A stretch of 42,824 nt of DNA from a virus: IMG/VR virus record IMGVR_UViG_2716884767_000001, positions 167,510-210,333 of that record. The stretch is one strand, 5' to 3'. The notes under the pieces were generated by a model. It saw only the letters and a program-made list of their open reading frames with translations. It was not told the origin of the DNA and made no database searches. Below are positions 16,001-42,804 of the stretch, in pieces. A program made the translations under genes and the position numbers. Within the stretch, counting starts at the first letter, position 1; each line of letters starts with the position of its first letter.

Positions 16001-17010
16001 ATGTTGGTATCGGAACTATAACTCCTCAAACAAACCTCCATATTCTTGCTCCTACTGGTTTACCAATAATACGTTTACAACATAATAGTGCTGGTAATGA
16101 TGTTTTTGACATTTCGAGTGGTATTCCTGGTGTAAGTAATGGTGGATTTGCAATTCGTGACGTTGATGCAAGTTCTAACAGATTAGTTATAGCATCAAAT
16201 GGTGATGTAAAAGTAACATCACGAGGTTCATCCGCCTCAGGTGCACCATTCTACGTTGCTGTAGATGGTAAATCATCTATCACATATGCTGGTGGTAATG
16301 ATGATACTGCTTGTTTAAGAATCGTAGATAATCAAGGTGATAATAATAGTTACTATCACGGACTTGAACTAAGAACAAAAAATAATGGTGATGTTAGACT
16401 TTATGCTCAAGATAAAGGTAGTAATTTAGCTGACTTTGTGCTTGCTACTGATTCTGGAGATGGTAATACTAATGGAATAAAAGAAAGACTTCGTGTCGCA
16501 ACAACGGGAGCAATTTCATTCAACGGTGAAACTAATTATGGTTCATCAGGACAGATACTTAAAAGTAATGGAGATGCTCCTCCAACTTGGATAGATGCAT
16601 CTACCGCAAGCGGTGTTGCCGTTAGTATCAAACAATATAAAGTTGGAACTACTGAAAGAACATGTGGTTCTCCTATAAGTGTTGCGTCTGGTAATGTCAT
16701 TGGAATTGCGTCAACAAGTAATGCTTATGGAGCTCGATATATCAGTACCGAGGCATCTGGTGGAAGTTATTGTGATGGAGATATATGGTATGATACATCA
16801 GATTCAGACCAAGACGAGAACAATGCTACAGGTACAACTACATCGAACATATTTGAAGCAAATAAATTCTTCCAAAACCCAACGTCACTGACACAAACAA
16901 CGACGTTCCCGATTAGTGGATCAAAAAATGGTGGAGTTTTTGGTCCTTATACAATTGCAAATGGTGTCACTCTTACAATCAGTAGTGGTTCAACGTTCAC
17001 AATCATATAG
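7045..17010 (+). CDS. Giant modular tail fibre protein (3321 aa)
   Basis: Same VGIGT/ERLRI linkers. T4 long-fibre-like IGDNDTG..DGDGQL motif near 15200. Putative ILEI/PANDER-like lectin domain at about 13830-14300. C-terminal GPYTIANGVTLTISSGS motif. Confidence 0.85.
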   Translation: MAIKISGSTIIDDSRVIVNADKIGIGQTTPRYDLEIFSTGTPTGIAVSATSTQTTDTNKAISIFNNSSTLAFSASYRGRVDAQEYYGTFKGTIDTGVSIGKADTIDITDDTTGSGTHYIHFGSATDGYDGVEVDSTGLVYKDGKFGIGTNNPTQELTLYGNDPIISVQEASVSSQVDMGTGTVTGFINIQKADGTRTVQITGNGKSYFTGGGLGIGTVDQTNYGGAVKLALYSTGHTGFTIAAGTSSDSNIFFADGITGDATYRGNIKYAHNGDSMRFHTAAEEQLRITSDGFVGIGTDNPATKLDVQDGDITIRNGAEHNAIRTTPDGKLQFLRNAASNNTVSVTIDDANGNVGIGETSPSSKFEIVSGNAASVVSGIKLKNDSTSASGPGSSIDFVVDGVNDVTTAQIIGQRTSANYHQGSLQFLTKDSGGAGLVERLRINSDGDLLRGGTGQDIGASDAKWDNIYANKVYADIEGSITPSGSLTITNDLTVNGNTTLGDATSDTLTINATPVIINDNGLYVKSETNAATDGAQIRFSDISNATQKGFIRYKHPDGSIAPGSNDGFIIGGTETLTVVKVEGRVLVDEKIGIGTDDPRNDLVKINHAGTDTPITALTISGQKITTGGGSGIFLKASSDVLNDDRYGSRIHTIREGTNNGATSLVISNENSDSSRLEERLRITSAGQVGIGTTNPSQMLTVRGTILKTRSDSGLGLIYLQQDGSQNGQIVVNQNGGVTRVKLDSAAESYFNGGKLLVSHTSVLHSGNLQVSAAGGDAIDINSYSTNANNGGRLSFYRSKNASIGSNTVVANGDSLGRIDFRGYNTNGNSYDQGATIEARVDGSVNSSTDMPTAILFKTSNDGSASPDERLRIASDGKVGIGTNLSTTPSSTLTVAPHNSTSGRNISLYTSGSVGNKAGLFFNSTSGTGNLAEIQAEYKGTNEGELVLSTSMQKRITIKKDGEVGINTATVYDTNTMLQVNGKSGAGPNLVLHRNDTTVSAGQVLGALRITGNDSNGTQQESSAIEFVADLDHGTDDKPGRIVFRTTNDGASSATEKVRINSDGDLLRGGTGQDIGASNAKWDNIYANKVYADIEGSITPSGSLTITNDLTVNGNTTLGSDSSDTLTVNANATFNDELEVFGTDASALVHFNGHSRGGIAAFSTQQVAFVSTHVNDDLLFGYSNNPPSGANFVPRMKIDNGTGYVSIGHTSPATKLDVKQNNGVAYDGNAQTVAYGAARFFNESGHVNGGTYTGFQFNITGNSQNRICSIGMISEASNSKASSLVFHTDDNGDRTEKLRIDSSGRLFTGGSTNILDSTVGTLHISGGTSGGRLAFRGTTTSAETGIAEVFAFWDTNKVAGMIAKSGTDTTNKVDGSLHFYTRPDANGLVERLNITSDGQVRIANTDLTTNSSADDLIVGTTSGNRGLTIFSGTGNTGNIFFADTDTSGVGNRMGTITYDHSGNFMRFSTSGNQEKVRITSTGDVGIGTTNPDGRLHVLGNSRFVGITTFTDDIFVGTDGKLLVGTTSGNNANKIHARLANGSIANTSNQSVILAENNTNTWITIGSGASNYGGILFADSGASDVGQVRYDHSGNALEFLTNGGNATNIRLKIDSSGHLLPGGTSQDIGSSSSRWNNIFAANANFSGTVTYESVTDIDAVGVITARDHIKFANSGDGIIFGTEGSSDRPSILGTYAAADDNYISFNTTGDERFRITKDGKFSLGTINATPSAGVHIDIDSNNMLMLDNSTASTQKMFFAQSGGTHAQIYATSASGALTIESDPSNNHTGSFIDFRVDNDEKLRIEAGGDVGIGTHNPGEKLDVNGAIRLRGNNQTTYAAVLKANYDSTHTLSLESYHNSGTAFEVIGTHADGGGTNVRVAIAKDGQKVGIGTVNPVASARLDVWGDGSEYPTLRLGTEAYDTEGEDIRFGRIDHPQSDIRYHSIYSYHHATAANNYLKFSVHKGSVGGNNTLQADIMHLKGDGNVGINEAGNINGRLHVQHDALNENILYATRYNDQTNDKPILAITEAQMTGMAANASGLVIGNHNRDIHIGQVFDSSATVDTSGVKGIRITNQGNVGIGTNNPTGAQALTGNNTTLAVGNLIAGNITGTLGSPGSDTQVLFNDGGDAGADAGLTFNKTSDKLTVGGDVKLGGTLFFNESAGDVSKIVGGASNLDLYADSLIQLYESDANRLGVTFDINQSATDRDVRMYFLGDSDTYLHSPASDTLGFTIGGTERLRLQTDALNIKTDVRYGANDSTLLTSHIYVRGTGLNNDAFRQCTLNGSDQISGGNRNNRGLHLLIFDATDSLTLDSGTTYDTHGNGTNSDNLATAIGGMDRTKIGVLVSYDAFTDNLTDNLRTAAQKVGLFKLAGMATGTATRHPYAAIFRGTSDDTDAEVNDAIEVIQSDDADAPTATISTFITVKGNGENATITGAYSVSALVAPAGGYESPLLQGKSSTNSASTLTIGAGVHLLPSGSAANDGDATGVDLGGSSNYLRQIYVRKINADSVVGPVTGAASQLKITNQASDATCFPVFVQAATGDTLTPHANTSLTFDASTGQLGATTLKSTASQGTAPFTVTSTTTVTNLSADLLDGRDTSNTGGSDVVMVTNNSGNTSLGSGIFTAGVLKATGNANPVAEFDRGSANNTNLNLKYNGTHYGQISVADKEFQLSAVGAATTFKVFTNGSSRFEIDVNGNAGLGARPKTSGTLYTTVDHFLVIGDNDTGIAQDGDGQLEIWANDQEIANFNTSNVTLRKNTTINGNLTVDGTLTYEDVTNVSTTGIITASAFIATGATVDSGTENDPTNVAMMLEVNDYIYSNDSVNSKRKIIGKSRTTNPTFETIEIGQTGTALIDQISIRPGNAGDFRVVTGGATGHPGSHTAVRVSAGGTLSVRDIDPKDVHFEVKSDKGMLIRTDTNTGSVSGLSGSLQGAKLLFSDQGSASQVGHIVYKHSDGAVSPNTNEGFIIGGSETLSVVKVDGRVLVDENVGIGTITPQTNLHILAPTGLPIIRLQHNSAGNDVFDISSGIPGVSNGGFAIRDVDASSNRLVIASNGDVKVTSRGSSASGAPFYVAVDGKSSITYAGGNDDTACLRIVDNQGDNNSYYHGLELRTKNNGDVRLYAQDKGSNLADFVLATDSGDGNTNGIKERLRVATTGAISFNGETNYGSSGQILKSNGDAPPTWIDASTASGVAVSIKQYKVGTTERTCGSPISVASGNVIGIASTSNAYGARYISTEASGGSYCDGDIWYDTSDSDQDENNATGTTTSNIFEANKFFQNPTSLTQTTTFPISGSKNGGVFGPYTIANGVTLTISSGSTFTII
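8368..8546 (+). repeat. Intragenic direct repeat, copy 1 (about 180 bp)
   Basis: Nearly identical to 10219..10397 (INSDGDLLRGGTGQDIGAS.AKWDNIYANKVYADIEGSITPSGSLTITNDLTVNGNTTLG). Confidence 0.95.
10219..10397 (+). repeat. Intragenic direct repeat, copy 2
   Basis: Nearly identical to 8368..8546, offset 1851 bp (in frame); differences mostly synonymous. Confidence 0.95.
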
Positions 17011-23900: not shown

Positions 23901-26900
23901 ATGCCACTGAATAAGTTAGATAATTTCTTAAAAAACGTAGAAGGTCGTATTCTTTATGTAAGTCCAAGTGATTTAGATGCAAGTGATGCGATGTCAAATC
24001 AGGGTAATTCCCAAGCAACACCATTTAAAACCATTCAAAGGGCACTGATTGAGTCAGCAAGATTTTCTTATGTTCAAGGTAATAATAACGATATAACAGA
24101 AAAAACAACAATATTATTGATGCCTGGTGAGCATATTATTGATAATAGACCAGGATACAAGATAAAAAAATCAGGAAACAATGCACAAATTTTAAATCAA
24201 GCAGGTGGAGTTGTTTCAACAGACTCATTATCTTTAAATTTAGACTCTAAGTTTGACCTTACAGTTGAAGATAACATTTTACACAAATATAATAGTGTTC
24301 ATGGTGGAGTTATTGTTCCAAGAGGAACTTCAATTGTTGGACTTGATTTAAGAAAAACAAAAATCATTCCAAAATATGTTCCAAACCCAACAGATTCATC
24401 AGTTCCTAATTCTGCAATTTTTAGAATCACAGGTGCCTGTTATTTTTGGCAATTTTCTGTATTTGATGGAAAGGAGAATGAGTTAGTATATACAGATAAT
24501 ACAATATTCACCAGTAAATTAAGCACTCCTACTTTTTCACACCACAAATTAACAGTATTTGAATATGCAGATGGAGTAAATTTAAATGAACAAACAGAAT
24601 TAACAGATTTAAATATGTATTACTATAAGCTTTCATTAGCTTATGGTACTGCGACAACAAATCGAAATATTATTGACAAATTTCCTGCAAGCACTGATGG
24701 TTTTGCTGCAAGAAGACCTGAATTTGAAATTGTTGGTGCATTTGCGGCGGATCCAATTTCAATTACAAGTCTCATATCAGGTGATGGATCAAACGTATCA
24801 CCTGTTGTAACTGTAACAACACAACAGGATCACAATCTCGATGTAGGAACCCCAATTAAAATATCTGGTGTTATTCCTCTTGAATATAATATTTCAGCAA
24901 AGGTAACCAGTGTCAGTGTGACTAATAAAAAAGTATTCACGTATGCTCTCGATAATGTTCCTGATGAGTTACCAGCAACTGCTTCTAATGTAAGTGGTGC
25001 AACTGTCACAGTTGAAACTGACACAGTTGGAGGAGCATCACCTTATATCTTTAATATATCGTTAAGATCTGTTTATGGTATGAATGGTATGCATGCCGAT
25101 GGATCAAAGGCAACTGGTTTCCGTTCAATGGTTGTTGCACAATTTACTGGAGTTTCATTACAGAAAGATGATCGTGCTTTTGTAAAATATAGTAAGACAG
25201 GTAGAGATTATGATGGATTGATCATAACCCCAGTTTTTGATGAAAGACTTTCATCAGAATCATCTGCAACCGACACCGAGAAAGTATTTCACTTAGATTC
25301 TGATGCAATCTATAGAAATGGATGGGAGACAAGACATGTAAAAATATCAAATGACTCTGTATTACAAATTGTATCTGTATTTGCAATTGGATATGGTATT
25401 CATTTTGAAGCAAAATCGGGTGCCGATGCTTCTATCACTAACTCAAACTCTAACTTTGGTCAATTAGCACTTGTATCTGACGGATTTAAGAAAAATGCAT
25501 TCCAAAAAGATGATCGAGCTTTCATTACTCATATATTACCACCAAGGGCAATAACTTCATCTGAAGAAAATATTGATTGGGTTACCATAGATATTGATAA
25601 AACAAAAACTGTTAATAATGATAAAAGATTATATTTGTTTGGATTTACCTCTGAAGATATATTACCACCGTCAGTGACTCAGGGTTTCCGAGTTGGTGCC
25701 AAAGTTAATGATGTTTTATTTGTAGATATTGCTGGTGTGGAAAAATCAGCAAATATTTTGATGGAGGATGGCACTGCCACACCTTCATTGTCAAGTGTCA
25801 AAACAATAGAGGTTGGAGAACCATCTGGAAGTCTGTTTACAACATCAGATGGATCAGCACACAAACTGTCAACAGGTGAAAAAGTAATTGTTATCAGTGA
25901 CGATGGTGACTTACCAGAGAATTTAGATGAAAAAACAGTATATTTTGCTATTGTTTTATCTCCTAGCACATTTAGATTAGCATCTTCAAAAACTAACGCA
26001 GATAATTCTGAATTTATCAGTGTATATAAAGGAACAAATTTAAAAGTATTAAGTCGTGTTAGTGATAAAGATTCTGGTGACTTAGGACATCCTGTTCAAT
26101 TTGATGGAACACAATGGTTTATTAATGTTCAAACAGGAAACAATATATTTACAAGTATTGCATCACTTACTGGTAGAACCGAACCATCATTCGTAAAGAG
26201 AATCTCAGACACGAGATCTCTTGATGAAAAAATTTATAAGGTTAGACTTGCAATACCAAAAGAAATTTCAAACTCAAAGAATCCAGAAAACGGTTTTGTA
26301 ATTCAAGAATCAAGTTCAACTGGTGTTCGAGGATCTTCTGATTTTATTAAAAATGATGCTCTTACTAGATCAGATTTTGAATTTAAAAGAAATCCTAGAT
26401 TTATTAGTAGTTGTACGTTCAATAATGCAACAGATATCATCACAATTCAAGCAGAGAGACCTCATAATTTACAAATAGGTGATTTAGTTACCATCAAAAA
26501 TATTAAAGATGGTGGTTCGGGTGGTAGTGCTTTGGGTGAAGATAATAAAGGATATAATGGAGAATTTACTGTCAAAAATATACCAAATAGTTTGACATTT
26601 GAGTATGAAACCACAAGAGATAATTTAGGTGCTTCTGCAACAAATGATTTTAGTATAGAGGATACATCTCTTCCTAGATTTGAGAGGACTGATCTAAAAT
26701 CAAATATTTATTTGTTTAGAAATACATTAGTTTCAGAATATATTGATGCCACACAAGATGGTGTTTATCAAGTATTTGCTCTTAATTCCAGTAATGATAT
26801 TCAAGAGGAATATACTGATTTAAATTATAGTCAAAATGTAGTTGATTTATATCCTCAATTAGATCGAGATAATGTAAATGAAAATCCCCAAGCATCTAAA

Positions 26901-29522
26901 TCTTTTGCTGTAAGATCTCCTTTAGGACAGGTAGTTACAAACGATCCTTTAAAGAGTCTTACAAGAGAGACAAATGATAAATTACTTAAATCCATTGGAA
27001 TAGGTCAACCTTTATTCTCATTCACAGACAATACTACAACAGGGATAGTTTCATTTACTACTGAACATAATTTTGCGGGTATAATGACTGCTACACTTCA
27101 CTCTGGTGGAGCAAACTATACACCAAATTCTGGTGTGGCAACCTATCGTAATGTAAAAGTATTCAACAGCACTACTCAAAATGATTCTACGTGGAATGGA
27201 ACATTATCTGATGTCATAGTTTCTAATGGTGCTGTGACATCATTTGAAATTACAAATACTGGATCTGGTTGGTCTGCAGGAAATAAAGGATATTTTGATG
27301 CAAATCGAATAGGTGCTGGTAATGGAGTGGCAATTTTGGATGGTAATGTCTCTGGTGCAGGTTTGACATCAGGAAACATTGGTGTATCGAGTGATTTAGT
27401 TATTCAATTTACAGGTGTAGGAACAGCATCCGACTCATATTTTAGATTAAAAGAAGTAAACGACAAGAAACAGATTACAATTCATAAAACAGGTGCAGAT
27501 GTTGATCCTATATCAGATCAATATGCATTTACAGTTAGTTCATCATCTAAGGTAGATACTGAAAGTTTCTCAGATGGGTTAAAAACTATCACAACATTTG
27601 AACCTCATGGACTCGTTGCTGGAAATAGATTCCAATTAAATAATTCATCAAATGTCAACCAAGGTTCATATATCGTTAAAACAAAGGTTGGTGTCACAAC
27701 ATTTACATTTGAGTTAGCATCCGATATAAGTGTTGATAATGGATTCATACTTAAACATGGATTATCAGCAAATGACGGTGTATCAGATTCTGGTCAAGAG
27801 AATTTATCAATTCGTGGTGTAGAATTATTTGACAATGAACATGCAAAATTAAGTGCTCAGATGGGATCAGGCGTTGGAATTGCTACTGTTGATACTACGA
27901 ATACACATAATTTACTTCAAAGATTCCCATACGGATCATATTTACTAATTGATGAGGAGATACTTCGAGTATCTACAAATACTTTACTTGGAGTTAATAA
28001 TGATCAAATTTCAGTAATTCGTGGAGTTTTTGGTACGGTTATCAAAAATCACGCAACTGGATCACTTGTTAAAAAAATTAAACCATTCCCAATTCAATTT
28101 AATCGACCATCAATTTTAAGAGCATCAGGTCATACATTTGAATATCTTGGTTATGGTCCTGGTAACTATTCAACTGCACTTCCACAAGTTCAGGTTAAAA
28201 CAATTTCTGAGAAGGAAGAGTTCTTATCACAGTCACAAGAAAGAGCAGGTGGTGCTGTTGTTTACACTGGAATGAACAACAAAGGTGATTTTTATATTGG
28301 AAACCAGAAAAAGTCAGCACTCACAGGTGAGGAGACATCTTTTGATACTCCGATACCATCAGTTACAGGTGAAAATCCTGGTAGATTGAGTGTTGTATTT
28401 GATGAAACAACAATCAAAGAAAGACTTGTAGTTGAGGGTGGTAAATCTAAGACATCATTATCTGAATTTGATGGACCTGTTACATTTAACAAGGAAGTTC
28501 AACTTAAGGATGCAGTTAAAATCAAAACAACAACGGATTCCACAAGTTCAACAACAGGATCACTCATAATATCTGGTGGTGTGGGAATTGCAAAAACTGC
28601 CAATTTACCTGATGATGCTGCAATAAAATTTGGTAATGGTGGAGATTTAGAAATTTTCCACGGTAGTGGTGGAAATTATCCAAATACAAATGTTATAAGA
28701 ACAACAAATACAAACACGTTATTATTTGAAACGGCTCAGGGTGGATTTGCATTAAATAATCGAGTAGGTGATGCTGCAAATAATTTTGAAAATATGATCA
28801 CTGCGAGTCCTAATGATTCAGTTGATCTTTTCTTTAATGGTACACGTAGATTAAAAACCACAAACACAGGAGCTGTCGTAACTGGAATTCTAACTGCTAC
28901 ACAATTTAAAGGTGATGGATCTCAGTTAGACGGTCTTAATAATAATCAATTATTAGATAGTAATAGCACAGTAAGAGCAGAAGCCACTACATCTGGTTTA
29001 ACTATCACTGGACAGTTGACAAACAATGGTAACATACAACTCACTTCTGCAAATCCAGAAATAGAATTAAACAATGGAGGTCCAAGATTTAGAGTTCCAT
29101 CCGCAAACGTACTTACTATTCATACTGGTAGTGGATTTGGTAGTGCCGAAAATGAAAGGTTACGTGTTAACACAACTGGTATTACGGTCACAGGATCAGG
29201 TACATTTACTGGTGATGTGATTGCATTTAGTTCATCTGATATGACACTTAAAAAAGATATATCACCCATAAAAAATGCACTTGACATGGTTAATAGTATT
29301 AGTGGTAATACATTTACTTGGAATACAGGACTGACACCATATGAAAATGGTACAAAGGACACTGGTATACTTGCTCAAGAAATTGAGGCACTTGGATTGC
29401 CTGGTGTTACAATTACAAGAGGTAATGGTGTGAAAGCAGTTCGTTATGATAGATTAATTCCTGTTCTGATTGAGGCAGTTAAGGAATTAACTTCTAAAGT
29501 AAACTCTATTGAAAACAAATAA
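23901..29522 (+). CDS. Large virion structural/tail fibre protein (1873 aa) with C-terminal S74-like chaperone
   Basis: Cyanophage-type N-terminus MPLNKLDNFLKN..GRILYV..PFKTIQRAL; repeated T...H.L..G motifs; C-terminal SSDMTLKKDI...GILAQEIE...VRYDRLIPVLIEAVKEL. Confidence 0.85.
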   Translation: MPLNKLDNFLKNVEGRILYVSPSDLDASDAMSNQGNSQATPFKTIQRALIESARFSYVQGNNNDITEKTTILLMPGEHIIDNRPGYKIKKSGNNAQILNQAGGVVSTDSLSLNLDSKFDLTVEDNILHKYNSVHGGVIVPRGTSIVGLDLRKTKIIPKYVPNPTDSSVPNSAIFRITGACYFWQFSVFDGKENELVYTDNTIFTSKLSTPTFSHHKLTVFEYADGVNLNEQTELTDLNMYYYKLSLAYGTATTNRNIIDKFPASTDGFAARRPEFEIVGAFAADPISITSLISGDGSNVSPVVTVTTQQDHNLDVGTPIKISGVIPLEYNISAKVTSVSVTNKKVFTYALDNVPDELPATASNVSGATVTVETDTVGGASPYIFNISLRSVYGMNGMHADGSKATGFRSMVVAQFTGVSLQKDDRAFVKYSKTGRDYDGLIITPVFDERLSSESSATDTEKVFHLDSDAIYRNGWETRHVKISNDSVLQIVSVFAIGYGIHFEAKSGADASITNSNSNFGQLALVSDGFKKNAFQKDDRAFITHILPPRAITSSEENIDWVTIDIDKTKTVNNDKRLYLFGFTSEDILPPSVTQGFRVGAKVNDVLFVDIAGVEKSANILMEDGTATPSLSSVKTIEVGEPSGSLFTTSDGSAHKLSTGEKVIVISDDGDLPENLDEKTVYFAIVLSPSTFRLASSKTNADNSEFISVYKGTNLKVLSRVSDKDSGDLGHPVQFDGTQWFINVQTGNNIFTSIASLTGRTEPSFVKRISDTRSLDEKIYKVRLAIPKEISNSKNPENGFVIQESSSTGVRGSSDFIKNDALTRSDFEFKRNPRFISSCTFNNATDIITIQAERPHNLQIGDLVTIKNIKDGGSGGSALGEDNKGYNGEFTVKNIPNSLTFEYETTRDNLGASATNDFSIEDTSLPRFERTDLKSNIYLFRNTLVSEYIDATQDGVYQVFALNSSNDIQEEYTDLNYSQNVVDLYPQLDRDNVNENPQASKSFAVRSPLGQVVTNDPLKSLTRETNDKLLKSIGIGQPLFSFTDNTTTGIVSFTTEHNFAGIMTATLHSGGANYTPNSGVATYRNVKVFNSTTQNDSTWNGTLSDVIVSNGAVTSFEITNTGSGWSAGNKGYFDANRIGAGNGVAILDGNVSGAGLTSGNIGVSSDLVIQFTGVGTASDSYFRLKEVNDKKQITIHKTGADVDPISDQYAFTVSSSSKVDTESFSDGLKTITTFEPHGLVAGNRFQLNNSSNVNQGSYIVKTKVGVTTFTFELASDISVDNGFILKHGLSANDGVSDSGQENLSIRGVELFDNEHAKLSAQMGSGVGIATVDTTNTHNLLQRFPYGSYLLIDEEILRVSTNTLLGVNNDQISVIRGVFGTVIKNHATGSLVKKIKPFPIQFNRPSILRASGHTFEYLGYGPGNYSTALPQVQVKTISEKEEFLSQSQERAGGAVVYTGMNNKGDFYIGNQKKSALTGEETSFDTPIPSVTGENPGRLSVVFDETTIKERLVVEGGKSKTSLSEFDGPVTFNKEVQLKDAVKIKTTTDSTSSTTGSLIISGGVGIAKTANLPDDAAIKFGNGGDLEIFHGSGGNYPNTNVIRTTNTNTLLFETAQGGFALNNRVGDAANNFENMITASPNDSVDLFFNGTRRLKTTNTGAVVTGILTATQFKGDGSQLDGLNNNQLLDSNSTVRAEATTSGLTITGQLTNNGNIQLTSANPEIELNNGGPRFRVPSANVLTIHTGSGFGSAENERLRVNTTGITVTGSGTFTGDVIAFSSSDMTLKKDISPIKNALDMVNSISGNTFTWNTGLTPYENGTKDTGILAQEIEALGLPGVTITRGNGVKAVRYDRLIPVLIEAVKELTSKVNSIENK

Positions 29523-34780: not shown

Positions 34781-34838
34781 GAGATCAGTTGGGAAACTGT
34801 CACAACCCTCTACACAGAGGGTTTTTTTGTGCTATGAT
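34781..34838 (+). promoter_or_regulatory. Dyad-promoter element copy 1
   Basis: GAGATCAGTT-GGGA-AACTGTCACA, then 28 nt, then extended -10 TGcTATGAT. Confidence 0.75.
34805..34828 (+). terminator. Rho-independent terminator closing the late tail region
   Basis: ACCCTC-TACACA-GAGGGT followed by a T-run. Confidence 0.8.
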
Positions 34839-34861
34839 ATGTACATATCAATGAGTTTTAC

Positions 34862-36034
34862 ATGCAACTAAGACCACATCAAGAGCAAGCAGTTAAAGCA
34901 ATGCTTCGTAACACTAAAGGTCAGATAATTGTTCCCACAGGTGGTGGTAAAACAATGTGTATGATTGATGATGCTATGAATGAATTTAGCAGATCATACG
35001 TCAATAAGACTATTGTGGTTGTTGCACCTCGTATTCTACTTGCCAACCAATTATCATCAGAGTTTCTTGAGTTTATTACGAATGTTGATGTAGCACATGT
35101 TCACAGTGGAGAGACACATCATTTCAGTACAACTAAAACTGATGAACTTGAAAGATGGTATCATAACAGCACCAAGAACATATTAATCTTCACTACATAC
35201 CATTCACTACACAAGATACAAGAGTCACTTGATATTGAAGTTGACACCATCTATTTTGATGAAGCACACAACTCAGTACAGAAAAACTTTATTGAACCTG
35301 TAGAGTATTTCTCAATATATGCTGAGAGATCATACTTCTTTACAGCAACACCAAAGCATAGTCTCACACCTATGAAAGTTGGTATGAATGATACTGACAT
35401 CTTTGGTAATGTTATATGTCAAGTACCTGCACCTAAGTTGGTTAAGCAAGGTTACATACTACCACCAAAGGTTGAAGTTTACAAGACCAGAATACTTGAC
35501 AAAGATGAGTTGGTTGCAGACAGAGACAATGAGCAGATGATTGATGCCATTGACAACCTAGACAAGGACAAGGTGTTGATATGTGCCAAGTCAACAAAAC
35601 AAATCGTTGCACTTGTATCACAGACTGACTTTGTAAAACAGTTGGCAGTTCGTGGTTACTCTTACATGTTCATCACATCTAAAACTGGTGCAGTTGTTGA
35701 TGGAGAAAAGGTGGACAGAGAGACATTTTTTGATACACTTAATGAGTGGGGTAGAAATGACAAGAAGTTTGTTGTACTACATCACAGCATACTCTCAGAG
35801 GGCATCAATGTCAATGGTCTGGAAGCAGTCCTATTCATGAGGTCTATGGATTACATCGGTATCAGTCAAACTATTGGTCGTGTCATCCGTAAGGGCAATG
35901 CTGATAAAGTATTCGGACTTGTTTGCATCCCTGTCTATTCTAAGGTTGGTATCTCCACTGCTAAAAAGGTCGAAGCAGTTGTTGATGTGATATTCAATCA
36001 AGGACAAGCAGCAACTTCGGTGGTAACAAAATGA
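34862..36034 (+). CDS. Superfamily 2 helicase (DEAH; type III Res-like core)
   Basis: LRPHQ (Q motif), PTGGGKT, FDEAH, TATP, LSEGIN, QTIGRVIR. Confidence 0.9.
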   Translation: MQLRPHQEQAVKAMLRNTKGQIIVPTGGGKTMCMIDDAMNEFSRSYVNKTIVVVAPRILLANQLSSEFLEFITNVDVAHVHSGETHHFSTTKTDELERWYHNSTKNILIFTTYHSLHKIQESLDIEVDTIYFDEAHNSVQKNFIEPVEYFSIYAERSYFFTATPKHSLTPMKVGMNDTDIFGNVICQVPAPKLVKQGYILPPKVEVYKTRILDKDELVADRDNEQMIDAIDNLDKDKVLICAKSTKQIVALVSQTDFVKQLAVRGYSYMFITSKTGAVVDGEKVDRETFFDTLNEWGRNDKKFVVLHHSILSEGINVNGLEAVLFMRSMDYIGISQTIGRVIRKGNADKVFGLVCIPVYSKVGISTAKKVEAVVDVIFNQGQAATSVVTK

Positions 36035-36135
36035 AAACAGACACACTATTAAAGATATACAAAGTGGTTAAGGTTAAACCCAAACTCAAGTATCCACCAG
36101 TTCGTAAACACTACAACATACATTTATTTGGTTAA
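36031..36135 (+). CDS. Small basic protein (34 aa, MKTDTLLKIYKVVKVKPKLKYPPVRKHYNIHLFG)
   Basis: ATGA overlap with the helicase stop; ends 2 nt before the next ATG; below the ORF-track cutoff. Confidence 0.55.
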   Translation: MKTDTLLKIYKVVKVKPKLKYPPVRKHYNIHLFG

Positions 36136-36137
36136 TT

Positions 36138-36689
36138 ATGAATTTTATTGAACAGTTAGAAACAAAGGTGGATTGGAATCGGGTATTTGGAGTTGTTGAC
36201 TCTTTATATTCCGATAAAGGATTCACATCAAATGCAGACAACTTTGCAAGGGCAACTATGGTAGAAAAAGCTTTAGACAAGTTTTCAGATATAGATAGAG
36301 TTGACCAAAATGGTTATGACTTTGAGTGGGAGGACAAGAAGATTGAACTCAAGATGGGTAAGAATCTTTTTTATAAAGTTAAAGACCCAAAAGCAACCAA
36401 AAAGTTTAAAGTTAAATCATTTTTAAGTGAAACAAAAACTGTAGAAGATTTCAGACAAATCAGCACATTTGATTGGTTACTTGTAATTGATCTCACAGCA
36501 AGAAGAGTTGTACTTGTTGAGGATGAACATGCAAGAAGTTTGTATGAAGAAGGTGCTGATGGTGCTATGATAGCACTTAAAGAAGGAGATTACTATGAGT
36601 GTAATATTGGAGAAATAAATCCCATACTACCACCAATTAATCTATCATACTTATATCAACAAGCAGATCAACAATTTTTAAATTTCTAA
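36138..36689 (+). CDS. Putative PD-(D/E)xK nuclease, restriction-endonuclease-like
   Basis: E...GYDF.....KIELK pattern; sits in an operon with a helicase and a methyltransferase. Confidence 0.5.
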   Translation: MNFIEQLETKVDWNRVFGVVDSLYSDKGFTSNADNFARATMVEKALDKFSDIDRVDQNGYDFEWEDKKIELKMGKNLFYKVKDPKATKKFKVKSFLSETKTVEDFRQISTFDWLLVIDLTARRVVLVEDEHARSLYEEGADGAMIALKEGDYYECNIGEINPILPPINLSYLYQQADQQFLNF

Positions 36690-36690
36690 A

Positions 36691-37128
36691 ATGAGTGCAA
36701 TAGTTTTAGTTACAGGAGGATTTGACCCAATACATACAGGTCACATCGCATATTTTAAAAATGCAAAAGAATTGAATCCAAATATACCATTATGTGTGGG
36801 ATTAAATTCTGATGAGTGGTTGATTCGTAAGAAGGGAAAGTATTTCTTACCGATGTCAGAGAGAAGAGCAATCGTTAAAGAACTCAAACCAGTTGATTTG
36901 ACAATTACATATGATGATACTGACGATTCATCTAACATGGCAATATACAAGTGTTTACAAATGTATGATAAAGTGATATTCTGTAATGGTGGAGATAGAG
37001 TTGACACTAATGTTCCAGAATATCTTAAATTCCAACAAAACGATAGAGTTATCTTTGAGTGGGGTGTTGGTGGAGATGATAAGATGAACAGCAGTAGTTG
37101 GATTCTAAATGAGTTTCTAAGAAGATGA
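36691..37128 (+). CDS. HIGH-family cytidylyltransferase (TagD/RfaE-II-like)
   Basis: TGGFDPIHTGH, VGLNSD, ERR, NGGDR, SSS. Confidence 0.9.
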   Translation: MSAIVLVTGGFDPIHTGHIAYFKNAKELNPNIPLCVGLNSDEWLIRKKGKYFLPMSERRAIVKELKPVDLTITYDDTDDSSNMAIYKCLQMYDKVIFCNGGDRVDTNVPEYLKFQQNDRVIFEWGVGGDDKMNSSSWILNEFLRR

Positions 37129-38087
37129 GAGACACAATTTTGTATGGAGATTGTCGTGAGACACTCAAACAATTTGATGAGCAAGCAAGGACTTGCATCA
37201 CATCCCCACCATATTATGGACTTCGTGACTATGGTGGAGAAGAAAACCAAATTGGTCAGGAACAAACACCTGACGAATTTATTGAACAATTAATCACAGT
37301 ATTTAAGGAGGTTCGCAATGTGCTTAGAGATGATGGAACTTGTTGGGTTAATCTTGGCGACAGTTACTATAATTACAGACCTGGAAAAGGACAAGGATTG
37401 GTTAAACAAAGTGTCTCAAATACAAAGCAAGACCTACCAGATGTGTGTCCTCGCAGAGGAAATCGAATCGAAGGACTCAAAGAAAAAGACCTTATCGGAA
37501 TCCCTTGGCAATTTGCCTTCGCAATGAGAGCAGACGGATGGTATCTCAGACAAGATATAATATGGCACAAACCAAATCCGATGCCAGAGAGTGTCAAGGA
37601 TAGGTGTACGAAGTCGCACGAATATATATTTTTGTTTAGTAAGAATAAAAAATACTATTACGATAATGAAGCAATCAAAGAACCCGCAAAAGATTGGGGA
37701 ACACGAGATAGAACAAAAGGAAAATACCATAACGAAGGAACAGGACTACAACCACATTCGGGACTTACAAAATCATATCCAACAAAGAATAAACGATCTG
37801 TCTGGTCAGTAACCAATAAACCATATCGTGAAGCACATTTTGCGACCTACCCACCAGATTTGATTGAACCTTGTATCAAAGCAGGGAGTCAGGTAGGAGA
37901 TATAATACTTGACCCATTCATGGGGTCAGGAACTACAGCAGCAGTAGCAAAGTCACTTGGTCGTGATTATATTGGTTGTGAACTACATGAAGACTATGGT
38001 AACTTAATTGAGAAGAGAGTGCAAGAATATAAACCAGTTCAAGAAGTGTCACAAGAGACTTGCATAAACATTCTGGATATTATATAA
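37125..38087 (+). CDS. DNA amino-methyltransferase, beta class (probably N4-cytosine)
   Basis: Motif IV TSPPY before motif I DPFMGSGTT; IIWHKPNPMPES, HFATYP. Confidence 0.92.
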   Translation: MRDTILYGDCRETLKQFDEQARTCITSPPYYGLRDYGGEENQIGQEQTPDEFIEQLITVFKEVRNVLRDDGTCWVNLGDSYYNYRPGKGQGLVKQSVSNTKQDLPDVCPRRGNRIEGLKEKDLIGIPWQFAFAMRADGWYLRQDIIWHKPNPMPESVKDRCTKSHEYIFLFSKNKKYYYDNEAIKEPAKDWGTRDRTKGKYHNEGTGLQPHSGLTKSYPTKNKRSVWSVTNKPYREAHFATYPPDLIEPCIKAGSQVGDIILDPFMGSGTTAAVAKSLGRDYIGCELHEDYGNLIEKRVQEYKPVQEVSQETCINILDII

Positions 38088-38088
38088 T
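38030..38088 (+). promoter_or_regulatory. Dyad-promoter element copy 2, inside the MTase 3' end
   Basis: TAAACCAGTT-CAAG-AAGTGTCACA; TTGCAT-17 nt-TATAAT; followed by RBS AAAGGAG. Confidence 0.8.
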
Positions 38089-38113
38089 AGAAAGGTAAAC
38101 AAAGGAGAGAAAA

Positions 38114-38212
38114 ATGATCGAAGGATTTGTGTTAACATTGGCATTGATGACATTTTGTATTGGTTCATCAATCGGTATTGTAAACTATGTAACTAAAGGG
38201 AGGTTCTTTTAA
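38114..38212 (+). CDS. Small membrane peptide (32 aa, MIEGFVLTLALMTFCIGSSIGIVNYVTKGRFF)
   Basis: Strong RBS AAGGAG; first ORF after the promoter; one hydrophobic segment. Confidence 0.65.
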   Translation: MIEGFVLTLALMTFCIGSSIGIVNYVTKGRFF

Positions 38213-38352
38213 TGAGATGTCAGGTCAAGTTATTTGTAGCAGGTAAGGTCTTCACAGAAGATGTACATGCTCGTAACTACGATGAAGCAAGACAAGTTGC
38301 AGTCGCAAGAAATCCAAACGCAAGAGTTTTAGGAGTTAATGCGAGGTTCTAA
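38212..38352 (+). CDS. Small hypothetical protein (46 aa, MRCQVKLFVAGKVFTEDVHARNYDEARQVAVARNPNARVLGVNARF)
   Basis: RBS GGGAGG, TAATG coupling; resembles small cyanophage early proteins. Confidence 0.7.
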   Translation: MRCQVKLFVAGKVFTEDVHARNYDEARQVAVARNPNARVLGVNARF

Positions 38353-38593
38353 CTATCAGAAGTTTTGTCCTACCAGATTTCCATCCTTACTAGACCCCGA
38401 AGTTGGTCAACCAACTGGTTATGTAACAAAGGATGGAATGTGGGCAGCAGTTCCGTCAAGTGGTAAGAAGTTTGCCATAATACACAATGGTATCGTAGAA
38501 CACTTCTCAAGAAATTTTGAATGTGCTATGACATACATACAAAAGGGAATTAAAAAAGAAAAAAATGAAAGATCAAGCATCAGTAGGGGATGA
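38339..38593 (+). CDS. Hypothetical protein (84 aa)
   Basis: RBS AGGAG; overlaps within the operon. Confidence 0.65.
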   Translation: MRGSNYQKFCPTRFPSLLDPEVGQPTGYVTKDGMWAAVPSSGKKFAIIHNGIVEHFSRNFECAMTYIQKGIKKEKNERSSISRG

Positions 38594-38840
38594 AACACCA
38601 TCCATTAAGTATCAAAGAGCATTAGACCTTTTTACTGAATCTGTCATGAAACCTGATCCTGACTTGCGTGGATGTGCATACAATCAAGGATGTTATGATG
38701 ATTTGATGGAAATACGAGAGCATGTGCTAGAGTATCTTAGAACATTAAAGGAAGTTACATACCATACAAATCCTGACGAAAGTGATGAAATCGAGACACA
38801 AAAGTTAATTGAAGCAAAACCCCTTTCTAAGTGGAGATGA
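38565..38840 (+). CDS. Hypothetical protein (91 aa)
   Basis: Operon-coupled ORF. Confidence 0.7.
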   Translation: MKDQASVGDETPSIKYQRALDLFTESVMKPDPDLRGCAYNQGCYDDLMEIREHVLEYLRTLKEVTYHTNPDESDEIETQKLIEAKPLSKWR

Positions 38841-39007
38841 GTTTAAAGATAAATCAAAATGACAATGGTTCATTTACTGTTGAGTGGGATAAAAAAGACC
38901 CCGATTGGATGTTTCTAAATCAGTTGACATCTGAACAGATACAAGATATGATAAGTGAAGTTATTAAAAATGATCTGAATGAATCAGGAAAAGAATTACA
39001 CTCTTGA
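38837..39007 (+). CDS. Hypothetical protein (56 aa, MSLKINQNDNGSFTVEWDKKDPDW...)
   Basis: ATGA overlap; fills the gap between annotated ORFs. Confidence 0.65.
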   Translation: MSLKINQNDNGSFTVEWDKKDPDWMFLNQLTSEQIQDMISEVIKNDLNESGKELHS

Positions 39008-39230
39008 ACAACTAAGTATGTGGATTGAGGAAGCACTTGAAAGTGAAGCAACACCAGAGGAGATATACAACTGTATTCGATCTACGATTAGTAGTAAGAT
39101 AACAAATCATGGAGTTTATTTGAGACACTCAAAAGAATTATTGTCTTTGTTGAGTGGAAATAATGCTCTACGATTTAAAAAAAGAAGGCATACGAGATTA
39201 AAGGTTGGTAAAGATATGGACATACTATAA
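38979..39230 (+). CDS. Hypothetical protein (83 aa)
   Basis: Operon-coupled ORF. Confidence 0.65.
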   Translation: MNQEKNYTLEQLSMWIEEALESEATPEEIYNCIRSTISSKITNHGVYLRHSKELLSLLSGNNALRFKKRRHTRLKVGKDMDIL

Positions 39231-39238
39231 CATAACAC

Positions 39239-39274
39239 TTGAAAAGTGTAAAGCAAGTGCTATACTAATAAATA
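39239..39274 (+). promoter_or_regulatory. Tandem sigma70-like and late promoters for cp12
   Basis: TTGAAA-16 nt-TATACT (preceded by TGc), then ATAAATA at 39268-39274. Confidence 0.6.
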
Positions 39275-39296
39275 GTAAATGTATAAGGAGGTCACT

Positions 39297-39524
39297 ATGA
39301 AAACTATCGAAGACCATATTCAACATGACAAGGAACTGATTGCAGACCCAAGTACTTCAGAACCGATGAAAAGACACGCAACTGAAGAACTACATGAGTT
39401 GCAAGAATATGTCGGACATCACAAAAAGGAGATCGAAGCAGGAGATCATCATGACCCAAATGCTTTAGAACTATTTTGTGATATGCACCCAGACGAACCA
39501 GAATGTCTAGTGTATGACGATTAA
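39297..39524 (+). CDS. cp12: CP12 Calvin-cycle inhibitor (auxiliary metabolic gene, 75 aa)
   Basis: C-terminal LELFCDMHPDEPECLVYDD is the CP12 signature; RBS AAGGAGG before ATG 39297. Confidence 0.92.
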   Translation: MKTIEDHIQHDKELIADPSTSEPMKRHATEELHELQEYVGHHKKEIEAGDHHDPNALELFCDMHPDEPECLVYDD

Positions 39525-39574
39525 ATAACTGTCACAAGCCCCCTTCACAGGGGGTTTTTTAATGCTATTATAAT
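39513..39574 (+). promoter_or_regulatory. Dyad-promoter element copy 3
   Basis: TATGACGATT-AAAT-AACTGTCACA, then 29 nt, then TGcTATTAT with overlapping TATAAT. Confidence 0.8.
39539..39560 (+). terminator. Rho-independent terminator after cp12
   Basis: CCCCCT-TCAC-AGGGGG followed by TTTTTT. Confidence 0.85.
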
Positions 39575-39640
39575 AGTGGGGAAACAAAATCATCTTAGTT
39601 ATGATTTTTGTTTCTCGCATCCAATTATCCCCTTATTCCT

Positions 39641-40051
39641 ATGGCAAGACTTTCTACAGGACAAATGCAAGAAGAGACACAGGAACTTCTTGATGAGTAT
39701 AATGAACTCTACAACTGGGAGTATAACGACATGTGTGATTTTATCGAAAAGCATGGAGAAGAGAGTTTTAGAGATCAGTATGAAACATACAACAGACTTG
39801 TTGATGATTATGGACAGGAAGTAGTCGATGAGTTTATGGAAGATTTCGACATTGAGAATTTTGAGGATATGTATCAAGGTCAATATGATAGTGGTGCAGA
39901 ATTTGCAGAGCAGATATGCCAAGATTGTGGTTACATATCAAACAATATGCCAAGTTGGATTGAGATAGATTGGGAGAAGACTTGGGAAAATGCACTTTCC
40001 TATGATTACACACTAATCGGAGAAGGTTACATATTTAATGCCAATTATTAA
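39641..40051 (+). CDS. ArdA-like acidic anti-restriction / DNA-mimic protein (136 aa)
   Basis: About 35 D/E versus 5 K/R by manual count. YQGQYDS..EFAE...GY...P.WIEIDWE...L.YDY....GYIF resembles the ArdA C-terminal domain. Confidence 0.65.
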   Translation: MARLSTGQMQEETQELLDEYNELYNWEYNDMCDFIEKHGEESFRDQYETYNRLVDDYGQEVVDEFMEDFDIENFEDMYQGQYDSGAEFAEQICQDCGYISNNMPSWIEIDWEKTWENALSYDYTLIGEGYIFNANY

Positions 40052-40095
40052 TGTGTCACACACTACCACGCATAGGGTATAAAATGCCTTATAAT
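40037..40095 (+). promoter_or_regulatory. Dyad-promoter element copy 4
   Basis: AATGCCAATT-ATTA-ATGTGTCACA, then 29 nt, then TATAAT; leader AAACAAAGGA. Confidence 0.8.
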
Positions 40096-40120
40096 AGTAA
40101 TATAAACAAAGGATTTTCAA

Positions 40121-40636
40121 ATGACAGTAACAGAACTCAACCCACCCAAGAACGAATCCCTAGAGGAGTTCATCAAAAGAGATCAGATCAAACAACAACT
40201 CAGAGAGAATGTTAAAGTCTGGACTGAGCAGTATTGTGATGCCATCACACAGAACTACAAAGAGTATCACATCAGATCATTACAGAGAAATCTATCAGGA
40301 GATTACCCAGAGTATGCTCAACAGCAGTTGGATGAGTTAGAGAACGGAACAGCAAACTTAATGAAGTTTCGTATCCAAGAAGGTCGTAGGTATTATAAAA
40401 TCATACAACAGAATTATCGTGAGTACAATGACTACTACCCAAATCTAAAAGAAGGTTATCATGATGGAAGTGTTCATTCATTTGTTGATAAGAATACAGG
40501 AGAAGTTTATATGGCAGCATCATGGAGTAGTCCAGCGAAGCATGTAAGATTTGACATGAGAGTGATAAGAGACAGGACATTGATGCACACACCAAGTTTT
40601 GTGACTTGGAATACTGGATACTTATACATGAGGTAA
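40121..40636 (+). CDS. Conserved phage hypothetical protein (171 aa)
   Basis: GRRYYKI...SVHSFVDK.TGEVY.AASW..PAK.VR motif; follows a promoter element. Confidence 0.75.
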   Translation: MTVTELNPPKNESLEEFIKRDQIKQQLRENVKVWTEQYCDAITQNYKEYHIRSLQRNLSGDYPEYAQQQLDELENGTANLMKFRIQEGRRYYKIIQQNYREYNDYYPNLKEGYHDGSVHSFVDKNTGEVYMAASWSSPAKHVRFDMRVIRDRTLMHTPSFVTWNTGYLYMR

Positions 40637-40641
40637 ACACA

Positions 40642-40803
40642 ATGCTACTTAATTTAACAAAAGAAGAACTTTGTCTCATTTCGATAGCACTTAATGAGTA
40701 TCAAATGAACAGAGACAACTATCATCTTGAGGAAATGGCAGAAATTTCAACTAAAATTGATAATTCATACAAAATGTGTACTTGCAAGGAGAAAATCCAA
40801 TGA
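40642..40803 (+). CDS. Hypothetical protein (53 aa)
   Basis: RBS GAGGT upstream of ATG 40642. Confidence 0.6.
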   Translation: MLLNLTKEELCLISIALNEYQMNRDNYHLEEMAEISTKIDNSYKMCTCKEKIQ

Positions 40804-40891
40804 ATGTATCAAATGATACCAATTTGCTCCTCTCAGGATCGTCTGTAACACCCCTGATTTTAACTTAGGGTATGATAGTATCCCCCTGATA

Positions 40892-40950
40892 TGTGCCAGT
40901 TTAATTAGTGTCACAAGTTTCCTACCATTTTACTTGATAGGGATTATAAT
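40892..40950 (+). promoter_or_regulatory. Dyad-promoter element copy 5 (most symmetric)
   Basis: TGTGCCAGT-TTAATT-AGTGTCACA, then 29 nt, then TATAAT. Confidence 0.82.
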
Positions 40951-40979
40951 AAGTACATAAGCAAAGAGGTTTCCCACTC

Positions 40980-41219
40980 ATGAACAACTTTAAAGAATTT
41001 CTTGATTATTGTGAGTCATTCTACTCACCATCACACCCAGATGTATTATATCCGATTGATGGATTGACCAGAGAAGAGTTAGCACTTGCAACTCTTAACT
41101 ATCTTGACCAATGTGAAGAGGGAACTCATGTCACATGGGGAGACGGAGACTCACTTGACAGAGAGAGAGTAAGACAGTTTGTAATTGACAGAAGAGCAGT
41201 ACTACAGGAGGTTGCATAA
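40980..41219 (+). CDS. Hypothetical acidic protein (79 aa)
   Basis: RBS GAGGT; GDSLDRERVR motif. Confidence 0.75.
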   Translation: MNNFKEFLDYCESFYSPSHPDVLYPIDGLTREELALATLNYLDQCEEGTHVTWGDGDSLDRERVRQFVIDRRAVLQEVA

Positions 41220-41299
41220 TGTTAAAGTTACTATTGATACTTGTAATCATCATATTTTTTGTTATAATATACTTAAGATCATTTGACCCACATGCTTAA
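41219..41299 (+). CDS. Small membrane peptide (26 aa, MLKLLLILVIIIFFVIIYLRSFDPHA)
   Basis: RBS AGGAGG, TAATG coupling, single hydrophobic helix. Confidence 0.5.
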   Translation: MLKLLLILVIIIFFVIIYLRSFDPHA

Positions 41300-42221
41300 T
41301 TTACACATTGAACACCCAGAAGATACAATTCTAACTGGTAGTCTTGACTTTCTCAAAGCAATCAAGTCTTATACAGTCGCACCACATGGACATATATCAG
41401 TCAAGATTGATGGTTCGCCTGCAATCGTGTGGGGAACTCATCCTGTCACTCATAAGTTTTTTGTTGGTACGAAGTCAGTATTCAACAAAAAGTTAATCAA
41501 GGTCAATTATACTCATAAGGACATTGACAACAACCATAAGGGATTAGTTGCAATTATCCTACATGCCTGTCTATCAAGTCTACCGAAGACAGAGTACATT
41601 TATCAGGGAGATTTTCTTGGATTCGGTGGAGACAACACTTTCCAACCGAATACAGTTACCTATGTGTTTCCTGAGAATGTACAACAGACAATCATAGTTG
41701 CACCCCATACACAGTATGAGATTGACCAATGTGTTCCAAGTCCAAGTCTCAATGCACTTCGTGATACCATTGCAATACCACTCTATGAACAATTAGAAAG
41801 TACGGATAAGACTTTCTTTTATCAACCACTTGCAATTATGAGTATCAATGATTCTCTTAAGGAGAGAATTGACTTTGCACTTCAAATTGCTCAGTTGGTC
41901 AAGTTTCTTGATAAGGACATGGCAAAGGCACTTCAGTATGAATTGAATCAGCACATCAAACAAGGTAGAAAAATTGATTCTGATGACTATGGGGATTCTG
42001 GTTATGGTCAACTGGTTGGATTCTACAACTTGATTATGGAGATCAAAGAAGAACTTTTATCATGTTGTAAAAGTAATCAGGTTGCAATGACCTTGATTGA
42101 AGGAGAGGAGTGCGATGGAGAAGGTTATGTATTCCATAGTGGTTATGGTTCATTTAAATTGATTGACCGTAGATATTTTAGTTTCTATAATTTTAAATTG
42201 CATCAGGAGTGGAGCGGTTAA
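41292..42221 (+). CDS. Uncharacterised protein with ATP-dependent ligase/nucleotidyltransferase-like motifs (309 aa)
   Basis: SVKIDG (motif I KxDG), YQGDF (III-like), GEGYV (IV), FKL (V). Confidence 0.6.
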   Translation: MLNLHIEHPEDTILTGSLDFLKAIKSYTVAPHGHISVKIDGSPAIVWGTHPVTHKFFVGTKSVFNKKLIKVNYTHKDIDNNHKGLVAIILHACLSSLPKTEYIYQGDFLGFGGDNTFQPNTVTYVFPENVQQTIIVAPHTQYEIDQCVPSPSLNALRDTIAIPLYEQLESTDKTFFYQPLAIMSINDSLKERIDFALQIAQLVKFLDKDMAKALQYELNQHIKQGRKIDSDDYGDSGYGQLVGFYNLIMEIKEELLSCCKSNQVAMTLIEGEECDGEGYVFHSGYGSFKLIDRRYFSFYNFKLHQEWSG

Positions 42222-42269
42222 TTAACTGTCACACACCACACACCATTTCATCCATTTATGGATTATAAT
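42210..42269 (+). promoter_or_regulatory. Dyad-promoter element copy 6
   Basis: TGGAGCGGTT-AATT-AACTGTCACA, then 30 nt, then TATAAT; leader nearly identical to copy 5. Confidence 0.82.
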
Positions 42270-42298: not shown

Positions 42299-42520
42299 AT
42301 GACTAAAGAAGATCAACTGATCGCAGACATCGCATATTGTGTTGATGACCTCGAACTCAATGATGACCAAATCGGTATTTTTCTCAGAGCATCCGAAGAA
42401 TTAGGTGTCAGTTGCCGATACATGGCAGAGGAATTTGTATTTGAGAGTGACACACTTGAGGAGTTTGAGAGACTACACCTTGACCCAGAATATCTTAAAA
42501 TCAACTGGAGGTTAAACTAA
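42299..42520 (+). CDS. Hypothetical acidic protein (73 aa)
   Basis: RBS AAGGAGG; follows a promoter element. Confidence 0.75.
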   Translation: MTKEDQLIADIAYCVDDLELNDDQIGIFLRASEELGVSCRYMAEEFVFESDTLEEFERLHLDPEYLKINWRLN

Positions 42521-42804
42521 TGAACGCAACACAACTTACAAAAGAGCAACTAGCAGATCTCAAAAGAGAGTTTGCTCATCTGATGATCGGAGACATGTCA
42601 CCCAAAGAACTGTTTGAGTTCGCAATTCACAGAATTACATGTGATGTGGCACTGATGAGACAGGAAGAACTCAAAGATCATATTGATGAATATGATGAAT
42701 ATGCCTATGAAGTCTTGGAGGACTATGTGACCGATACAGTCGGTTCATATGAAATCTACCAAGAGTTTCTATCTGATCGCAATTCAACATGGGAGAGAGA
42801 TTAA
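42520..42804 (+). CDS. Hypothetical acidic protein (94 aa)
   Basis: RBS GGAGG, TAATG coupling. Confidence 0.75.
   Translation: MNATQLTKEQLADLKREFAHLMIGDMSPKELFEFAIHRITCDVALMRQEELKDHIDEYDEYAYEVLEDYVTDTVGSYEIYQEFLSDRNSTWERD

Follow-up and report, generated by a model that had tools for sequence, protein, structure and literature searches.

T4-like cyanophages reportedly carry a novel early-gene regulatory element, said to have been described by Doron et al. 2016 in Syn9 and P-TIM40 and to be conserved in this group of phages. Here we analyse a set of promoter units from a virus known as IMG/VR record IMGVR_UViG_2716884767_000001, in which a 24-bp dyad stands at a fixed distance upstream of a -10 box. 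The stretch studied (the window, positions 167,510 to 210,333) comprises the final 42,824 bases of this 210,333-base record, which CheckV rates as complete. Two further described systems bear on the units. CGRE1 is a 21-22 nt palindrome that starts 55-57 nt upstream of the yfr2 transcription start sites in Prochlorococcus and marine Synechococcus (Lambrecht et al. 2018, PMC6191309). A GntR-family protein, PMM1637 (PlmA subfamily), was pulled down with CGRE1 and shifted it in an electrophoretic mobility shift assay (EMSA); in reporter experiments PMM1637 raised the activity of the yfr2 and yfr4 promoters, and CGRE1 was required for this positive effect (PMC6191309). The other system is PeSL, a plain sigma-70 promoter combined with a stem-loop, found in T4-type coliphages and vibriophages (Arbiol et al. 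2010; Comeau et al. 2014, PMC4122927).

The six dyads of the window start at positions 34781, 38030, 39513, 40037, 40892 and 42210, with the sequences given by a first-pass annotation that had been made from the DNA letters alone, and C6, TT9-10 and TGTCACA do not vary among them. The -10 boxes of units 1-6 start 28, 29, 29, 29, 29 and 30 nt after the dyad and read TATGAT, TATAAT, TATTAT, TATAAT, TATAAT and TATAAT, respectively. The consensus is the idealised dyad of the annotation, TGTGnCAGTT-N4-AACTGnCACA, followed by 29±1 nt and then TATAAT. A logo made from 152 sites of related viral contigs shows no consensus at -35, in agreement with the poor -35 noted earlier, and the promoter-proximal arm is more conserved than the distal one. 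Transcription start is probably marked by an A/T pair 7-8 nt past the -10 box; given a start 7 nt past the box, the dyad spans approximately -65 to -42. As a terminator-like hairpin with a T-run fills the spacer in some units (units 1 and 3, and the unit at genome position 650), the sequence of the spacer is free and only its length is fixed.

To count the units genome-wide, we defined a composite site as a 24-bp dyad that departs from the consensus at no more than five of its 18 specified positions and has a good -10 box 28-31 nt further on. The + strand of the 210-kb genome contains ten such sites; 100 Markov-1 simulated genomes had 0.71 on average and never more than 3. The bare 7-mer TGTCACA, in contrast, shows no excess in the window (12 copies, with 13.5 expected), and in some copies it is replaced by TGGCACA, an accepted variant. 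The annotation had counted six copies, which is right for the window and an undercount for the genome, and it had placed the whole regulon between 34781 and 42269, a confinement that does not hold. Further dyad sites lie past the record end, at genome positions 51, 650 and 1317 (all good copies) and 1859 (a weak one), and another is found at 58911, ahead of a cobS-like AAA gene. Nine of the ten units fall within one 9.4-kb block that crosses the record ends and is continuous on a circularly permuted map. All ten sites are on the coding strand, where they overlap gene ends or lie immediately upstream of them.

No dyad had been noticed in the late region, and we likewise found zero composite sites in window 1-34000. 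The T4-late-type motif ATAAATA stands immediately ahead of the large structural ORFs (open reading frames) at window 7045, 23901 and 29538; its copies in the window are at 7003, 17884, 23863, 29519, 34007 and 39268, and genome-wide it occurs 53 times in the forward and 5 times in the reverse direction. The strand bias of TATAAATA over the genome is 17 forward to 0 reverse, and no copy of this full 8-mer is present in the window, where about 5 are expected. One ATAAATA copy lies within the early-type block, ahead of the ORF at 39279-39524.

With a position matrix derived from the present genome, the unit is also detected in Syn9 and P-SSM7, and an exact 20-base pattern matches at least 120 IMG/VR viral contigs; by its presence in all of these, the unit is a conserved one. 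For a survey of spacing we took 80 loci (712 kb) from the pattern matches and left out the seed sites, which gave 234 cases. The -10 box starts at 28, 29 and 30 nt in 27, 112 and 45 of them, respectively. In the viral loci, arms facing each other are separated by exactly 4 nt in 167 cases; the remaining gaps between 0 and 12 yield 3 cases in total. The two arms are often imperfectly complementary; at mirrored positions they are complementary just as often as independent conservation predicts, and none of these positions reaches a mutual information of 0.1 bit. This lack of covariation between the arms rules out an RNA or DNA hairpin as the selected element. Two words held at a fixed geometry without covarying argue, rather, for a site at which a protein binds the promoter.

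The unit is very probably the early-gene element reported by Doron et al. 2016. We equate the two because of what that study is reported to describe, the presence of the unit in Syn9 and its non-canonical design, that is, a -10 box without a canonical -35 and with a conserved upstream element at a fixed distance. As far as can be told, then, the dyad element is not new; the sites of the window are a further instance of a promoter class reported for T4-like cyanophages and represent no new kind of element. The first-pass annotation had pointed to such a motif and, as far as can be told, was right. None of the open papers that we found shows the Syn9 early motif, and those that pair TGTCACA with cyanophages are unrelated.

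To compare the dyad with host promoters, we took Prochlorococcus and Synechococcus genomes, located their Yfr2 small-RNA genes (Rfam Cyano-1) and read 36 upstream regions. Full host sites have the form AACTGnCAC, 1-2 nt, GTGnCAGTT, examples being AACTGGCACATATGACAGTT and CAACTGGCACTGTGCCAGTTG. A CGRE1 pattern rebuilt from the prose of the published description, GTTA-N3-GTGTACAC-N3-TAAC, had the wrong arm order and was not above control; it was the real Yfr2 promoters that gave the true site. Many host Yfr2 promoters retain the GTGnCAGTT arm alone, beside an upstream terminator. The 9-bp arms GTGnCAGTT and AACTGnCAC are identical in the phage dyad and in CGRE1, and their order is reversed: the partner arm lies upstream of GTGnCAGTT in the host and downstream of it, nearer the promoter, in the phage. 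The distance from the end of GTGnCAGTT to the -10 box is 43-44 nt in most host promoters (range 41-46) and 43 nt (4 + 10 + 29) in the phage; the host value is the one that follows from a CGRE1 whose promoter-proximal end is 55-57 nt ahead of the start site. In addition, seven host promoters, some of them orthologous and thus not all independent, show a third, weak arm 4 nt past GTGnCAGTT (at least six of nine matches, against a background of 1.6%), which occupies the place of the strong proximal arm of the phage.

One viral contig (5437-5490, - strand) has a phage-type dyad with another arm directly beside it, so that three stand in a row, the layout that some Yfr2 promoters of the hosts show weakly. 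A near-perfect phage-type dyad, GTGCCAGTCAAACAACTGGCAC, recurs in several Prochlorococcus genomes, at about position 1501-1522. As a host site it was rejected: it is embedded in a conserved coding sequence of LysR type (…GASQTTGTY…), no -10 box follows it, and we regard it as a codon coincidence.

Each of three Prochlorococcus genomes that we checked encodes exactly one GntR protein, and no GntR domain was found in any frame of the phage. In the copy examined, from MIT 9302, the GntR protein has 328 amino acids, with an N-terminal GntR domain as the only assigned domain, as expected for the PlmA subfamily. To our knowledge, PlmA is the one GntR regulator that is present in all cyanobacteria and only in cyanobacteria.

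We consider it highly likely that the units are early-type promoters with a protein-docking dyad. Such a promoter combines a good -10 box with no usable -35 and has, instead of the latter, a site of 24 bp with two-fold symmetry. A DNA-binding protein that acts as a dimer or in a higher-order form, present in the cell when the DNA enters, would dock on the dyad and recruit the host RNA polymerase. The docking protein would most likely be the single GntR-family regulator of the host, PlmA (PMM1637 in Prochlorococcus MED4). What makes PlmA a testable candidate, and what supports it most sharply, is that the same arms stand at the same distance from the -10 box; on this comparison of promoter sequences we put PlmA forward tentatively, with slightly less than an even chance of being the protein on the phage dyad. 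The chances of the explanation as a whole, early promoters docked by a pre-existing protein that is most likely host PlmA, seem to us about even. Somewhat more doubtful is the broader proposal that T4-like cyanophages borrow PlmA, by means of a rearranged Yfr2-promoter site, to set their infection programme going.

The annotation had read the dyad as the site of a dimeric activator of an early regulon, and this is still the best reading. The features of a docking site stand: two-fold symmetry, the rigid 29±1 nt, the lack of arm covariation, wide conservation and the arms of a known positive regulator all point to a dimeric activator site. The other two parts of that reading, timing and the direction of control, we infer. 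Early timing is suggested by gene content (an anti-restriction protein, a DNA methylase, a helicase and small ORFs) and by the separation of the units from late-type promoters; the ArdA-like anti-restriction protein, the DNA methylase and the helicase downstream of units fit the takeover class. The dyad would presumably activate rather than repress.

Several observations weigh against the attribution to PlmA, the sharpest being the swapped arm arrangement. The phage arms face each other across 4 nt, the host arms face apart with 1-2 nt between them; the phage dyad thus has neither the arm order nor the 1-2 nt gap of CGRE1, and the host-type order is rare in phage DNA. Since a rigid dimer cannot read both arrangements, either PlmA would have to be flexible or of higher order, or another protein of similar specificity would be at work. 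A yfr promoter that kept one arm only gave no shift in EMSA (PMC6191309). The phage-type arrangement is not above control in 201 host-family genomes, nor was it in a scan of four genomes, which leaves the strong site without a host precedent and the weak third arms as the sole hints of one.

The specificity of the facing arms to phage DNA (167 at gap 4 in viral loci; control level in the 201 host genomes) fits a factor that hosts do not use. The dyad could, accordingly, be bound by a phage protein, either packaged in the virion and delivered together with the DNA, or made very early and boosting the remaining units, and many small ORFs with no assigned function indeed share the region with the dyad units. 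We nevertheless regard a phage protein as unlikely: with no GntR domain in the phage, it would have had to arrive at these 9-bp words by convergence, chance would have to account for the match of the arms to those of the host site as well as for their matching -10 distance, and no virion-borne DNA-binding protein was identified in this analysis. Palindromes at phage early promoters are classically operators, and some spacers contain weak -35-like hexamers (TTCACA, TACACA and TTGCAT); the dyad might thus serve to shut off an early burst from the -10 box and these -35-like bases once a host or phage protein binds to it later. However, the site lies wholly upstream of the -35 position and ends near -42, a location from which bound proteins usually activate; the -35 region shows no conservation, and the sole protein known to read the arm words, PlmA, acts positively. 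Shut-off by an operator therefore appears improbable.

A role of the units mainly as recombination cassettes of the PeSL kind, or as RNA hairpins at the ends of upstream transcripts, would account for their position between small-gene cassettes and for the terminator hairpin found within two of the six window units and at one further genome site. PeSLs have been proposed to mediate shuffling (PMC4122927). Yet there is no covariation between the arms, whose complementarity is often imperfect, so that no hairpin is selected for, and a -10 box held at an exact distance is what promoter geometry demands. Repeated promoters could give rise to recombination as a by-product, and the PeSL paper does not include cyanophages (PMC4122927); we give this explanation very little credence.

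The record is a T4-like cyanomyovirus, and its host is probably Prochlorococcus. Its psbA is 95% identical to psbA of high-light Prochlorococcus, and the only megablast match in the phage collection, limited to the DNA methylase gene, was to Prochlorococcus phage P-SSM7. The window has a GC content of 34%, every large gene is on the + strand, and an Rfam scan of the window gave no match. Giant structural ORFs occupy window 1-34 kb, three of which dominate this part on the + strand (696-7010, 2104 amino acids; 7045-17010, 3321 amino acids; 23901-29522, 1873 amino acids). From 34.8 kb on, small or takeover-type genes follow, among them those for an SNF2/ResIII helicase, a cytidylyltransferase-like protein, an N6/N4 DNA methylase, an ArdA-like anti-restriction protein and several proteins with DUF domains.

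All parts of the six window units are on the + strand. Dyad 1, GAGATCAGTT-GGGA-AACTGTCACA (34781..34804), has four mismatches to the consensus. Between it and the -10 box TATGAT (34833..34838, 28 nt past the dyad) lies a terminator-like hairpin with a T-run (34804..34823), and the unit is followed by the SNF2/ResIII-type helicase gene at 34862, the cytidylyltransferase-like gene and the N6/N4 DNA methylase gene. Dyad 2 (38030..38053) lies within the 3′ end of the methylase ORF; its -10 box TATAAT (38083..38088, 29 nt past the dyad) precedes a run of small ORFs at 38114-39524. In unit 3, dyad 3 (39513..39536) is followed by a second terminator-like hairpin with a T-run (39540..39554) and by the -10 box TATTAT (39566..39571, 29 nt past the dyad, with an overlapping TATAAT at 32 nt); the gene of this unit, ORF 39608-40051, encodes the ArdA-like anti-restriction protein. 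The loops of the hairpins in units 1 and 3 place TACACA and TTCACA, respectively, where the -35 hexamer would be, and the same bases may thus end the upstream unit and initiate the next.

Dyad 4 (40037..40060) and its -10 box TATAAT (40090..40095, 29 nt past the dyad) precede a gene at 40121 that encodes a DUF7717 protein. Dyad 5 (40892..40915) is the best copy in the window, with two mismatches, and its -10 box TATAAT (40945..40950, 29 nt past the dyad) is followed by genes at 40980 (phrog_7799) and 41283 (DUF6267). Dyad 6 (42210..42233) overlaps the final codons of ORF 41283-42221; its -10 box TATAAT (42264..42269) lies 30 nt past the dyad, and genes at 42299 and 42520 (DUF7326) follow. Just past the window end, the dyad at genome 51-74 (region 16-109) has a TATAAT 29 nt off on either side, so that one symmetric site may serve two divergent promoters. 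The leftward promoter would run antisense into the last ORF of the window, 42520-42804.

The proposal names one concrete host protein for the early promoters of the ocean's most abundant cyanophages, and standard assays apply to it. If the protein is PlmA, one promoter design would work across the Prochlorococcus and Synechococcus hosts of a broad-host-range phage, and the start of infection would be tied to the high-light and nitrogen-stress signalling of the host. If it is not, the swapped arrangement would point to a phage-delivered factor that mimics the host specificity.

Among known systems, the dyad resembles the sites of CRP (TGTGA-N6-TCACA) and NtcA (GTA-N8-TAC) in that its palindrome has TGTG...CACA ends and in that it lies, as an activator site would, upstream of a -10 box whose -35 is weak. 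A CRP or NtcA site was ruled out, as TGTG and CACA are separated here by 16 nt, compared with 8 in the CRP site; moreover, the inner CAGTT and AACTG blocks have no counterpart there, and the centre lies at about -53.5 rather than at -41.5 or -61.5. A LexA site and a sigma-54 site (-24 TGGCAC) were both ruled out on spacing and position. PeSLs resemble the present units in being repeated composites of a terminator and an early promoter (Arbiol et al. 2010; Comeau et al. 2014, PMC4122927), and both kinds of element bound small-gene cassettes in the hyperplastic regions of T4-like genomes. In contrast to PeSL, what is conserved in the present units is a dyad of the protein-binding type, whose distance from the -10 box is fixed. 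The fusion of a sigma-70 promoter to a terminator that defines PeSL is only partly seen, with a hairpin in two of the six window units and a weak -35.

CGRE1, whose regulation is positive, has in common with the phage dyad the arm words, the orientation and -10 distance of GTGnCAGTT and a position upstream of the -35. It differs in the swapped arm order and in a gap of 1-2 nt rather than 4 nt, the phage centre being about 14 bp nearer the promoter, and the host Yfr2 promoters have a TTACA-like -35 that the phage units lack. The papers we found on CGRE1 do not mention phages, and a link of PlmA or CGRE1 to phages is absent from the open literature that we searched. The element of Doron et al. 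is reported to be likewise found in T4-like cyanophages ahead of small genes of the takeover type, to depart from the standard sigma-70 -35/-10 design and to be conserved among cultured and metagenomic cyanophages. The phage analysed here differs in being an uncultured one with a 210-kb genome that is known from its sequence alone; the present unit, for its part, occurs in Syn9 itself.

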